64,000 nucleotides of DNA. Source: a bacterium (lineage in GTDB: Bacteria; UBA8248). Positions 55,335 through 58,530 of this stretch are shown in pieces. Positions within the stretch are counted from its first letter, which is position 1. Each line of letters opens with the position of its first letter. The notes beneath the pieces are model-generated. The model was given only the letters and a program-made list of their open reading frames with translations, was not told the DNA's origin and ran no database searches. The position numbers and the translations under genes were made by a program. Location: the NCBI GenBank assembly GCA_963692865.2, contig OY843592.1, positions 192,001 to 256,000 of the forward strand. Reading direction: 5' to 3'.

Positions 55335-56363
55335 TCAGGCAGAAAAATGCTCCCAGGCGAGATTTTCCAGCGCGAAAATCCCATCTGCGCGTTTGAGGGA
55401 AATCCCTTCAGGAGCCGGTACTATTTCTCCGATGGGGGTGAGCGGCGCCCCTCTCGATTGTCGGACGACTTCCTGAAGCGTTCCTACGGATTCAGCGGGC
55501 GTCGTGACGAGAAGTTCGTAGTCTTCTCCGCCGTGCAGCGCCCACTCGCTGGGCTTTTTCTCGGCGACAGAGGCTACTTCGAGCAAGGTGCTGGAAACGG
55601 GTAATTCCGATTCCCAAAGGATAGCTCCCGTCCCGCTTGCCTCGCACAAGTGACGGATATCGCCCGCCAGCCCATCGCTGATGTCCATCATGGCGTTGGC
55701 CAGCCCCGATTCCGCGATAGCTACCCCCTCCGCAACACGGGGCCGCGGCTCAAACTGCGCGCGGGTGAGCGAGGCGCGCAAGTCTTCTCGGAATTGGATG
55801 TGCGGTGCGGAGGACAAGTGAAGCCCCGCTGCGGCATCGCCCAAATACCCTGTCACCAAAATCCTGTCTCCCACGTGAGCACCGCTTCGGAGAAGAACTT
55901 TCTCCTCCATCATTCCGCCGACGAGGAACACGTCGACGAACAAAGGACCACTCGTTCGCGTGACGTTTCCGCCCAATATCAAAATGTCGTACTGCTCCGA
56001 GAGCGCGCGGACCCCACCATACACGTCGTCAAGAAACGAAACGGGCGTCTCTTCGGGTATCCCCAATGAGATGAGAGCAAAACGCGGCTTTCCCCCCATT
56101 GCCGCCACGTCGCTCATGTTCACCGCCAGCGACTTGTAGCCCACGGCGAAACCGGAAACATCCCATGTGGACGGGAAATGCACGCCGCCGACCTGCGCAT
56201 CGCACGTCACAACCCAGCACTTCCCCTCTGCCGCCTTGATGACGGCCGCATCATCCCCGTTCCCGACGATGACGTCCGCATCGTTTCCGATCGAGCCGAG
56301 TTTGTTTCTCAGGCGTTCTATAAGGGCGAACTCGCCAATATCTCTCGCCGATCCTCCGCTCAT
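55335..56363 (-). CDS. thiL: Thiamine-monophosphate kinase
   Basis: GEFALI, GDDAA, NMSDVAAMG, DISDGL, GGEDYEL. Confidence 0.95.
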   Translation of the reverse strand: MSGGSARDIGEFALIERLRNKLGSIGNDADVIVGNGDDAAVIKAAEGKCWVVTCDAQVGGVHFPSTWDVSGFAVGYKSLAVNMSDVAAMGGKPRFALISLGIPEETPVSFLDDVYGGVRALSEQYDILILGGNVTRTSGPLFVDVFLVGGMMEEKVLLRSGAHVGDRILVTGYLGDAAAGLHLSSAPHIQFREDLRASLTRAQFEPRPRVAEGVAIAESGLANAMMDISDGLAGDIRHLCEASGTGAILWESELPVSSTLLEVASVAEKKPSEWALHGGEDYELLVTTPAESVGTLQEVVRQSRGAPLTPIGEIVPAPEGISLKRADGIFALENLAWEHFSA

Positions 56364-57004
56364 CTCCCCGCCCTCTCGATGCGCTTGCGCAACTCCCTGG
56401 TCGCGGCTTCAGGGTCGGACGCTCCCATCACCGCGCCGATAACGGCGACGCCCGAGGCGCCGGCTTCGATGACGGGTTCCACGTTCTCGGCGCCGATTCC
56501 CCCGATGGCGACGGCAGGCATGCCGGGGGCATGTTCGATTATCCGCCGGAATCCTTCCGGCCCGATCGGCGCCCTCGCATCGGCCTTGCTCCCCGTCGCA
56601 TATACAGGGCCTACACCGATATAATCCGCATTCTCGGCGGCGGCCCGCGATGCCCATTCGGGTTTTCCGGCTGTAACGCCATAAAACAACGTATCTCCCG
56701 CCATCGCCCTGGCCCTCGAAATCGGAAAATCCTCCTGCCCCAGATGCACCCCGTCCGCGCCACAGGCCATGGCAACGTCCACCCGATCGTTCACCGTAAA
56801 AGCGCAGCCGGTTCCTTCCAGAACCTCCCGCAGTTCATCCCCCAGGCGAATCATCTCTAAGCCGCTTAAGTTTTTCTCTCGAAGCTGTACCATGCCGGCC
56901 CCGTTCGTCGCGGCTGCCCGAACCGCGTCTTTCAGCTTCCATCCGGAAGCCTGTGACAATATCTCCCGGTCGGTGATGACTATCAGCGACAGGTCGAATT
57001 TCAT
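56360..57004 (-). CDS. thiE: Thiamine-phosphate synthase
   Basis: QLREK, NDRVD, GVHLGQED, VAIGGI. Confidence 0.95.
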   Translation of the reverse strand: MKFDLSLIVITDREILSQASGWKLKDAVRAAATNGAGMVQLREKNLSGLEMIRLGDELREVLEGTGCAFTVNDRVDVAMACGADGVHLGQEDFPISRARAMAGDTLFYGVTAGKPEWASRAAAENADYIGVGPVYATGSKADARAPIGPEGFRRIIEHAPGMPAVAIGGIGAENVEPVIEAGASGVAVIGAVMGASDPEAATRELRKRIERAGR

Positions 57005-57194
57005 GGCGTCCTCCGAGAAAGCAAAAGCAAATCTACCACGTTGATAATGAAATACGACTACTATGACAAGCAAGACAATCCATGTTGAGGCATGCGTTCA
57101 TTTGTGAAGGAGACATCCAAAGATACCGAACGTATCTCTTGCACATTTCTTCTATGCTTGAGAACCTCCTCCCCTATCATCAGAGGAGGACGCC

Positions 57195-57794
57195 ATGAAC
57201 TGGATTCAACCCATTTCCCCGGATGACGCGGAGGGGGCCACAAAAGAAATCATCGATGACCTGCGCAAGACGGGAAAACCCATTCCCAGGATGTTTCTCG
57301 AGATGGGCTGGAGACCCGATATTCTGGCCGGGCGCGAAACGCTCCGCCGCGCCGTTCATGGCGGCTCGAGTCTCGGCACGAGGCGGGCGGAGTTGCTCGC
57401 TTTCTACGTGGCGGCCCACGGGGGGTGATACGGCTGAGCGATGAACCACGGGCAGTTGTTCCGTGACGAATGCGATGACGCCTCCACCGCCGAAGTGGCC
57501 GAGGTGCTGGACGACCCGAAGCGAGCGGGAATCCTCGACCCGGCGGACCGCGCCATGCTCGCCTATGCGGAGAAGTTCACCCACGCACCCCACCAAATGG
57601 AAAAAGCGGACATCGAGCGGCTCAGGGGCGCCGGCTTCAGTGAGGAGAACATCGTGGACATCATCGCGGCCGCGGCCTACAGAAACTTCGCCAATTCGAT
57701 CAACTACGCCTTTGGGCACGTGGAGCAAAATCCCGAAGGACCCGAAGAGTTGCAGACCACCATCCAGAGGTTGAAAAAGAAAATTCGTGGCTAA
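57195..57794 (+). CDS. AhpD/CMD-like peroxidase-related protein with two in-frame TGA (predicted UxxU selenoprotein, 199 aa)
   Basis: The track ORFs 57195-57428 and 57441-57794 are in one frame, separated by TGA TAC GGC TGA at the family CxxC position, followed by H. Confidence 0.8.
57447..57465 (+). promoter_or_regulatory. Candidate bacterial SECIS hairpin
   Basis: CACGGGC-AGTT-GTTCCGTG; loop has G in second position and starts 16 nt after the second TGA, 25 nt after the first. Confidence 0.5.
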
Positions 57795-58530
57795 CAAATC
57801 ATGCGCCCTTTCATCCATATCGTATGTGGGTCTGTTCATATCCGGCGCTTGCGCGCTGGCCGCCATGGCGTCCGGGCTGGGCCATCGCTGGGAATTGTGG
57901 CATTTCAGCACGGGATTCCAGATTTTCAAGTCCGCATCCGTCATCGCGCTGCTCTCCGTTGTCGTATCCATGGCTGGAGGCCTGTTCGCCTTGCGCGACG
58001 CTTCCAGGCTCAAGACGTTGGCCGCCGCCCTTGGCATCGCATTGGGTTTCACCGTAGCGGGCTTCCTTCACGCGCACATGCAGATCGCGAGACGGGTGCC
58101 CAAGATCCACGACATCACGACGGACACCCAAAACCCTCCCGCTTTTCAAGCCGTCATTCCACTACGAAAAAATGCAAAAAACCCGCTCGTTTACGAAGGA
58201 ACACGCATCGCCCGGCTTCAGAAAAAAGCGTATCCGGACATCAAGTCACTTCCTTTCCAAATTTCAAAAGAAGAAGTTTTCAAACGCGCCCTGGACGCCG
58301 CGCACGCCATGGGTTGGCATGTGGTGTCATCCAAACCGACAGCAGGACGCATCGAGGCCTATGACACGACTTTCTGGTACGGCTTCATTGACGACATCGT
58401 CATACGGGTTACGTCGAGCAGTGGAACGACGCGCCTCGACATTCGCTCGAAATCCCGCGTGGGCGTAGGCGACATCGGTGCGAATGCCAGGCGAATTCGT
58501 GGATTTTTCGAGAAACTGAAAGTAAGATAG
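57787..58530 (+). CDS. DUF1499 membrane protein
   Basis: IHDITTD, AYPDI, GFIDDIVIRV, DIRSKSRVGVGDIGANARRI. Confidence 0.88.
   Translation: MANKSCALSSISYVGLFISGACALAAMASGLGHRWELWHFSTGFQIFKSASVIALLSVVVSMAGGLFALRDASRLKTLAAALGIALGFTVAGFLHAHMQIARRVPKIHDITTDTQNPPAFQAVIPLRKNAKNPLVYEGTRIARLQKKAYPDIKSLPFQISKEEVFKRALDAAHAMGWHVVSSKPTAGRIEAYDTTFWYGFIDDIVIRVTSSSGTTRLDIRSKSRVGVGDIGANARRIRGFFEKLKVR

Follow-up and report, generated by a model that had tools for sequence, protein, structure and literature searches.

An AhpD-like gene conserved with in-frame UGA codons at both active-site cysteine positions in a selenocysteine-decoding bacterium of the UBA8248 lineage

We analyzed a 64,000-nucleotide stretch of bacterial DNA (GTDB lineage UBA8248; assembly GCA_963692865.2, contig OY843592.1, positions 192,001 to 256,000 of the forward strand), hereafter the window, and focused on an AhpD-like gene whose reading frame contains two TGA codons. 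The putative coding sequence of this UxxU AhpD-like (TIGR01926) selenoprotein (U, selenocysteine, Sec) occupies window positions 57195..57794 on the plus strand and comprises 199 codons plus TAA; a Shine-Dalgarno-like GAGGAGG is seen in the sequence at 57183..57189 (+), 5 nt 5' of the ATG. From the ATG at 57195 to the TAA at 57792-57794 runs one frame containing both TGAs, with the local reading GGG TGA TAC GGC TGA GCG ATG AAC CAC. TGA 1 (57426..57428, +), corresponding to U78, lies on the first cysteine of the CxxC motif, and TGA 2 (57435..57437, +), corresponding to U81, lies on the second. Translation with TGA read-through gave a 199-aa product with the segment U78-Y-G-U81-A-M-N-H85, that is, UxxUxxxH, and the His85 codon CAC (57447..57449, +), which encodes the H of this motif, doubles as the first three bases of an RNA hairpin described below (hairpin A). 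An initial annotation had placed TGAs at 57426 and 57435 within a CxxC...H site, and both the coordinates and the motif were correct; the family-sized 199-aa read-through product that it proposed was borne out by the frame and by the TIGR01926 score given below. Read with translation table 11, the frame is split into two open reading frames, 57195-57428 (77 aa) and 57441-57794 (117 aa). Searches of public protein sets returned 28 matches, 25 of which were the 117-120-aa C-terminal fragment only (designated, where named, as 'hypothetical protein, Nitrospinae bacterium'); the three full-length matches were CxxC relatives with 36-39% identity.

The family of the product was assigned by hidden Markov model (HMM) scoring with Cys substituted for Sec. 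The product scored 89.4 bits against NCBIfam TIGR01926 'peroxidase-related enzyme' (cut-off 81.8) over residues 3-178 of 199 and 25.5 against Pfam CMD (cut-off 23), and the sibling models scored well under their cut-offs (TIGR04030, 49.1 vs 233; NF053654, 32.1 vs 310; NF041238, 22 vs 175). An AlphaFold2 model built from a 34-row alignment was all-helical with 10 helices (mean predicted local distance difference test score 93.5, predicted template modelling score 0.89) and placed residue 78 at the N-terminal end of helix 79-92. Foldseek searches with this model yielded 6K40, 2PRR, 3C1L, 2PFX and 2OYO as leading matches, with template modelling (TM) scores of 0.65-0.77, and each of the ten best matches was an AhpD or peroxidase-related structure (E 2e-7 to 3e-6). 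Sequence comparison placed Deinococcus radiodurans AhpD 6K40 (E 4e-16), 3C1L, 2OYO, 2PRR and 2PFX closest among solved structures. The CxxC of the PDB homologues pairs residue by residue with U78/U81, and their His pairs with H85 (6K40, 3C1L, 2OYO). A profile of 34 relatives lifted 6K40 to E 2e-34 and also reached Mycobacterium tuberculosis AhpD 1GU9, aligning positions 50-101 with its residues 102-151 and carrying positions 78/81 onto residues 130/133, which we take to be its two catalytic cysteines (Cys130 and Cys133). With Sec written as Cys, all 34 aligned rows have C78, C81 and H85. Cys was thus found at both positions among homologues, as the initial annotation had expected of a genuine active site: as CxxC in the PDB homologues and in homologues P0027-29, and as CxxU in paralogues. 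These results establish that the frame is an AhpD-fold member of the TIGR01926 'peroxidase-related' subfamily.

We then assessed the conservation of the two TGAs by six-frame searches of 61 related genomes and subsequently of all 51 sampled genomes of the phylum. In the genus of the window genome, designated g1, the window genome and 18 of the 22 others (19/23) carried a full-length match with two TGAs at 74-93% identity, covering residues 1-199; genus g3 contributed one genome of one (62% identity) and genus g2 four of five (53-54% identity). The UxxU gene was therefore present in 24 of the 51 sampled genomes, distributed over three genera, and the six-frame search recovered no full-length two-TGA match from the 22 genomes outside these genera. 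Two further '2 TGA' matches, in G025 and G043 (25-31% identity), were rejected, being CxxU proteins whose second TGA is the terminator. Twenty-three orthologues were extracted and aligned, and the 24th (G065) was read later. Both TGAs occupied the same two columns in 24/24 orthologues, within the segment GG-U-Y-G-U-A-[MVI]-N-H-G, and no change to TGY (Cys), TAA or TAG occurred at either site in any of them. By the Nei-Gojobori method, applied to the 253 orthologue pairs, the median ratio of nonsynonymous to synonymous substitution rates (dN/dS) was 0.138 for residues 1-77 (dS usable in 217 of the 253 pairs) and 0.205 for residues 82-199 (usable in 242 of 253), and dS against genus g2 reached 1.2-1.9. 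At such divergence, these ratios indicate that both halves have been kept as protein, in one frame, past saturation of silent sites.

These data bear directly on the explanation that the locus is a pseudogene, an AhpD-like gene killed by two nonsense mutations. Such a gene would account for a table 11 frame broken twice and for public sets that hold just the C-terminal piece. However, the TGAs coincide precisely with the two catalytic Cys columns, every orthologue read retains them at dS up to more than 1, dN/dS is low on both sides of the motif (0.14 and 0.21), the orthologues are not copies of one sequence (74-93% identity within the genus, 53-62% outside it), and the genome encodes complete Sec machinery, described below. 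We therefore consider a pseudogene extremely improbable. The initial annotation had likewise regarded two independent nonsense mutations at exactly these codons as unlikely and had named relaxed selection in the flanking sequence as a sign to the contrary; the position of the TGAs on conserved Cys columns upholds the former, and purifying selection was found on both flanks.

Equally at stake was whether both TGAs are stops that separate two small genes, whose 77-aa and 117-aa products would assemble non-covalently. An ATG (57441) does stand one codon past TGA 2 in 19/19 g1 sequences, the window's included, and the C-terminal piece is what gene callers annotate. By contrast, the matching codon is GTC, ATT, GTA or GTG in the g3 and g2 orthologues (L048-L051), so that no start is conserved, and the available 6-9 nt contain no ribosome-binding site. 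Splitting the frame would also strip both catalytic residues from the protein, and the two codons that separate the TGAs, TAC GGC, are themselves conserved in frame. Two separate genes thus appear very improbable. Taken together, the results demonstrate an intact gene, maintained by selection, that carries UGA in place of both active-site Cys codons in an organism equipped to decode Sec.

Four g1 genomes yielded no full-length match. In G010 the UxxU gene is missing, and two fragments (C4:127136-127390 and C5:835962-836216) are 78% identical to residues 115-199 only, with the appearance of a truncated remnant. The complete, smaller genomes G001, G007 and G009 gave no UxxU match with this query.

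The window genome (4.15 Mb, 8 contigs, 97.4% complete, 6.7% contamination) was searched for the components of Sec decoding. A selB gene (391.7 bits) and an adjacent selA gene (567.2 bits) were detected, neither with internal stops, together with a Sec-type selD (334.6 bits, G000:C1:65915-66877) that carries one in-frame TGA of its own; the selenophosphate synthetase of this genome is thus probably itself a selenoprotein. The tRNA-Sec scored 76.7 bits against a gathering score of 47 (RF01852), and ARAGORN described it as a 97-nt tRNA-SeC(UCA) whose acceptor and T stems measure 8 and 5 bp and whose CCA is preceded by a G. All four components, selA, selB, selD and tRNA-Sec, exceeded curated cut-offs in one genome, and the Sec machinery whose presence the initial annotation had proposed to check was thus found in full. 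No tRNA-ReC-like gene was detected by the genome-wide ARAGORN and RF01852 searches; the remaining RF01852 matches were tRNA-Leu and tRNA-Ser, and the only other UGA-relevant tRNA was one ordinary tRNA-Cys(GCA). A second tRNA-Sec copy on contig C4 (C4:29715-29811 vs C1:1207500-1207596) is identical, with flanks 98.5% identical over 2.1 kb, and is probably an assembly duplicate. The CxxU paralogue described below also occurs twice (C3:31039-31611 vs C1:3328495-3329067), which suggests that the small-contig repeats represent two close strains or haplotypes in the assembly and not true gene duplicates. A screen of sequencing runs for words of the locus listed no RNA run that contained it; four runs with at least 97% of the words came from a single study and are possibly those from which the assembly was made, and most runs with a small share of the words were labelled 'sponge metagenome', from which we deduce no habitat.

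Several in-frame TGAs, in the AhpD-like paralogues and in selD, could also arise if TGA were read as sense throughout the genome under an alternative code. This is refuted by the use of TGA as the terminator of 1419 of the 2672 open frames of at least 350 codons; moreover, selA and selB contain no internal stops, the in-frame TGAs are on Cys columns only, and 6 of the 23 aligned orthologues themselves end in TGA. The probability of such a code is therefore negligible. A regular-expression scan of the genome for further U..U frames gave 202 candidates, nearly all of them Arg-rich alternative-frame noise.

We examined the RNA downstream of the UGAs by comparing synonymous codon diversity along the gene in 19 g1 sequences. 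The whole-gene minimum is a stretch of suppressed synonymous variation at codons 79-97 (57429..57485, +), across which windows gave 0.014-0.11 against approximately 0.27 gene-wide; for codons 82-93 the mean was 0.056, compared with 0.270 elsewhere (Mann-Whitney p = 1e-4, which is overstated, the sequences being related). His85 is CAC in 23/23 sequences, Phe89 is UUC in 23/23 and Arg90 is CGU in 22/22, and in the codon after Arg90 the residue varies (D/V/A/G) with the first base always G. The suppressed synonymous variation implies that some RNA element overlaps the coding sequence there. Cys93 (TGC, 57471-57473, the C in 'DEC'), a third cysteine 12 residues past U81, also lies in this stretch; it is kept in 19 of 23 orthologues (18/19 g1 sequences and g3; codons TGC in 18 and TGT in 1) and replaced by Ser or Thr in L031 and g2, and it may be a further redox residue or merely part of the RNA element.

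The best candidate for a selenocysteine insertion sequence (SECIS) is hairpin A (57447..57465, +; CACGGGC-AGUU-G(U)UCCGUG), with a 7-pair stem, one bulged U and the 4-nt loop AGUU. A hairpin with a G-containing loop, reported by the initial annotation 16 and 25 nt downstream of the UGAs, is indeed present: the loop begins at 57454, 25 nt past UGA1 and 16 nt past UGA2, and the stem begins 18 nt past UGA1 and 9 nt past UGA2. Hairpin A is common to all three genera, with 98.6% of cells paired in 20 distinct orthologue sequences; four pairs are invariant and two vary one-sidedly (G-U/A-U and C-G/U-G). Its loop is AGUU in g1, GGUC in g2 and, on a longer stem, GUC in g3, so that a G stands at loop position 1 or 2. 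This agrees with the bacterial SECIS consensus, which has a G within the first two loop positions (PMC13582414; this and the other papers cited here were available to us in part, and the statements drawn from them refer to those parts). Judged from its conservation in the three genera, it is plausible that hairpin A acts as a SECIS serving both UGAs.

Three other structures were considered and rejected. Stem-loop D (57450..57483, +; 13 pairs, loop GACGA), which excludes hairpin A and is the minimum free energy fold of 57438-57485, had 87.7% of cells paired, equal to the shuffle level, and is largely broken in g2. A fold of ACGGCUG (containing UGA2) with CAGUUGU, returned by RNAfold in several sequences, starts 2 nt past UGA1 and was dropped because the ribosome would melt it. 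Pairing reached only 79% in a further helix, 57438-57443 with 57469-57473, at the base of hairpin A.

The CxxU paralogues carry a different hairpin, hairpin B (GCC-AG-GCUUUC-CGUGCU-GAAAGC-GGC; 24 sequences, 15 distinct; e.g. L026:1729-1800), which sits 8 nt further downstream than hairpin A. It was 94.8% paired, and four distinct sequences, all of one CxxU sublineage, show a compensatory pair (G-C to A-U); 1 of 500 shuffles did as well. Its core stem lies 18 nt, and its loop 24 nt, past the single UGA of the paralogue; the stem spacing is thus the same as that between hairpin A and UGA1. In the UxxU clade, 64.2% of cells pair in the hairpin B columns, which does not exceed a slid control.

The spacings of hairpin A bear on a further explanation, in which the UGAs are read through with a residue other than Sec at one or both sites, either Cys inserted by a SelB-dependent tRNA of the tRNA-ReC type or near-cognate Trp/Cys, with UGA1 perhaps mainly a selenium-dependent attenuator. 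With UGA2 at 9 nt and UGA1 at 18 nt from the hairpin, at least one spacing is non-optimal, and tRNA-ReC is enriched in genomes with UXXU hydrogenases, where one or both UGAs may be Cys (PMC13582414). However, ARAGORN and RF01852 yielded only the canonical tRNA-Sec and one ordinary tRNA-Cys here, and if Cys sufficed, at least a few of the 24 lineages should have a TGA-to-TGY change, whereas none was seen at either site. We accordingly regard insertion of a non-Sec residue as unlikely, and the reading of both UGAs as Sec is preferred.

The relatives with a single UGA were examined for the direction of change. A paralogue of approximately 48% identity in these same genomes has TGY at site 1 and TGA at site 2 (CYGU), and G029 has a 53%-identity relative that is likewise CYGU. 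Site 78 is TGY (Cys) in all nine CxxU relatives aligned, and the TGA 2 column matches their single Sec and is TGA in all of them. A collection of genomes from 185,579 species was scanned with three conserved peptide patterns, and 80 loci were kept; the patterns favour close relatives, and these loci represent a sample and not a census. They comprised 63 CxxU, 13 UxxU, 3 CxxC and 1 unreadable locus, with the UxxC form in 0 of the 80. All 13 UxxU loci came from records titled Nitrospinota, Nitrospinaceae or just 'bacterium', and the CxxU loci span Dehalococcoidia, Binataceae, 'delta proteobacterium', Acidobacteria, Chloroflexota, Gemmatimonadales and others; CxxC homologues also include P0027-29. 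In a maximum likelihood (ML) tree of 35 rows (23 UxxU, 9 CxxU, 3 CxxC), the CxxU rows formed one clade (92/99), with the UxxU rows forming the remainder. CxxU being the widespread form, parsimony on unrooted relationships would derive UxxU from an ancestral CxxU gene through a change of TGY to TGA. The UxxU gene would be a double-Sec version of a family known with a single Sec, so far found in one Nitrospinota-labelled lineage only. A distant CMD paralogue (L028, G000:C1:3198439-3198942; 26% identity) has an ordinary CxxC (CHFC) and was rejected as a selenoprotein, its single TGA being the terminator.

Directly 3' of the AhpD-like gene and on the same strand lies a gene for a DUF1499 membrane protein (57787..58530, +; Pfam DUF1499, 83.4 bits) with N-terminal membrane helices. 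The two coding sequences share 8 nt, from the GTG start of the DUF1499 gene to the AhpD-like stop, and a search for terminator-like sites between the genes found none. The same arrangement was present in 20 of 23 orthologue loci, comprising all those of g1 and g3, and no DUF1499 gene was found within 1.5 kb in the g2 loci. The two genes are probably co-transcribed, and the DUF1499 membrane protein is a possible functional partner of the selenoprotein. Upstream and divergent is a thiE-like gene (TMP-TENI; 56360..57073, -), present in most g1 loci, as well as a thiL-like gene; further downstream is a gene for a molybdopterin xanthine-dehydrogenase-family subunit. No ahpC, lpd, dlaT or lipoamide-system gene was found in the neighbourhood.

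On this evidence from the sequences, the locus is very probably a doubly recoded UxxU AhpD-type selenoprotein gene, in which both cysteines of CxxCxxxH are replaced by UGA read as Sec. In the proposed mechanism, SelB-tRNA-Sec, recruited by hairpin A, would insert Sec at both UGAs. In M. tuberculosis AhpD, nucleophilic attack is made by the second Cys, activated by His and a water, and the first Cys is the resolving residue. By analogy with that enzyme, U81 would attack an oxidised partner or a hydroperoxide. Resolution of the adduct by U78 would leave an intramolecular diselenide, to be re-reduced by a reductant. The oxidised state would be a diselenide in place of the selenenylsulfide of the CxxU relatives. 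A diselenide has a lower potential and faster exchange than a selenenylsulfide, and the change from CxxU to UxxU would thus shift the redox poise and create no new reaction. This change may have been accompanied by remodelling of the SECIS, with the loop moved approximately 8 nt upstream. A fuller scenario, which we offer tentatively and hold to be rather doubtful as a whole, is that the recoding signal was rebuilt: hairpin B decayed and the tighter hairpin A took over, its stem 18 nt past the new UGA1, so that one hairpin would recruit SelB twice within three codons and the product would be the first AhpD-fold enzyme to cycle via a diselenide, possibly coupled to the DUF1499 protein. If this were true, the old UGA would be left just 9 nt from the stem of hairpin A, and the UxxU orthologue and CxxU paralogue in one cell would constitute a natural comparative test of how SECIS and SelB handle tandem UGAs.

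Several observations weigh against parts of this reading. Hairpin A displays no covariation, with no double change in the 20 distinct sequences, whose columns barely vary. Folded alone, it reaches -7.6 kcal/mol (z = -1.39), and 16 of 200 shuffles were as good; its 81-nt context gave z = +1.0 and 57438-57485 gave z = +0.17, no better than shuffles. Rfam returned no match in the window at gathering scores, nor in 57400-57520 at E <= 10, and fold D competes with hairpin A in genus g1. Each of the 15 distinct CxxU sequences is also able to form the 5-pair core of hairpin A, so that the assignment of hairpin A to UxxU and of hairpin B to CxxU is unproven. In E. coli, fdhF tolerates little change in the UGA-to-SECIS spacing, and a single hairpin for two UGAs 9 nt apart would be inefficient there. 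On the ML tree the UxxU form needs two changes, and 36% of bootstrap trees have a branch that separates it from all other rows; a single origin fits every well-supported branch, and the tree neither shows nor excludes it. The peroxidase activity and the diselenide are suggested by analogy only.

If both UGAs are read as Sec, the real product of the locus would be a 199-residue double selenoprotein and not a 'hypothetical protein' fragment, and the rare UxxU/diselenide design would be extended to a further fold, AhpD/CMD. What the second Sec adds can be gauged against the CxxU sister form, a built-in comparison that the same genomes also encode, and the loci pairing UxxU with hairpin A and CxxU with hairpin B bear on whether one SECIS can serve UGAs 9 nt apart, a question raised by a 2026 study of hydrogenases (PMC13582414). 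UxxU motifs have already been described in several other selenoprotein families (PMC2398784, PMC13188914, PMC13582414).

The closest known selenoproteins are the CxxU proteins of TIGR01926/COG2128 ('AhpD-like 1' of the Global Ocean Sampling (GOS) and Sargasso surveys), which share with our gene the HMM family, the fold, the position of the second Sec and the NHG after the motif; in contrast to them, the first Cys is here also UGA and the conserved downstream hairpin is different. In the parts available, the AhpD-like family is listed as CxxU with one Sec (PMC13188914; PMC2398784), and the GOS survey gives AhpD-like 1 and 2 both as CxxU, with UxxU in Prx-like 2 alone (PMC2398784). UxxU is given only for a Prx-like oxidoreductase (PF00578), the NF041115 metal-binding protein and a TIGR02605 FmdB-type protein (PMC13188914), with which a 2022 review agrees (PMC9312934); the statement of the initial annotation that one-Sec AhpD-like proteins are known and UxxU is rare accords with this listing. 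The 2026 paper added Group 4 [NiFeSe] hydrogenase large subunits, whose UXXU forms are related to CXXU ones and have been proposed to use one downstream SECIS for both UGAs (PMC13582414). BSepDB, likewise available in part, gives 48-54 selenoprotein genes in 'Nitrospinota/UBA8248' metagenome-assembled genomes, which marks the lineage as one with exceptionally large selenoproteomes. A UxxU AhpD-like protein is not described in the available parts of this literature, and the BSepDB tables or paper supplements may already contain such genes.

Among Cys-containing enzymes, M. tuberculosis AhpD (1KNC/1GU9) and D. radiodurans AhpD (6K40) share the all-helical AhpD/CMD fold and CxxCxxxH with our product, and theirs are two Cys. 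6K40 is the best match by both sequence and structure (TM 0.72/0.77), and M. tuberculosis AhpD is a weak one (E 1e-3, TM 0.45); in the latter enzyme, catalytic roles belong to Cys130, Cys133 and His137, and AhpC and lipoamide are its partners. The Bmp8 debrominase (6OHI/6OHJ), a CMD-fold thiol-dependent dehalogenase, matched residues 19-176 with TM 0.65-0.69 and a profile E of 3.5e-9 and scores under the peroxidase-related group, which provides a lead, from modelling, towards a dehalogenase-type activity. Among bacterial and eukaryotic UxxU selenoproteins, Prx-like 2/SelL, NF041115, TIGR02605 and the Group 4 hydrogenases likewise have two Sec three residues apart replacing CxxC, and SelL reportedly forms a diselenide, in work attributed to Shchedrina et al. 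in 2007. Those UxxU proteins have unrelated folds and chemistry (thioredoxin fold, HMA, zinc ribbon, Ni ligands), none of them CMD/AhpD, and the likeness of our gene product to SelL/Prx-like 2 is accordingly one of design and not of descent.

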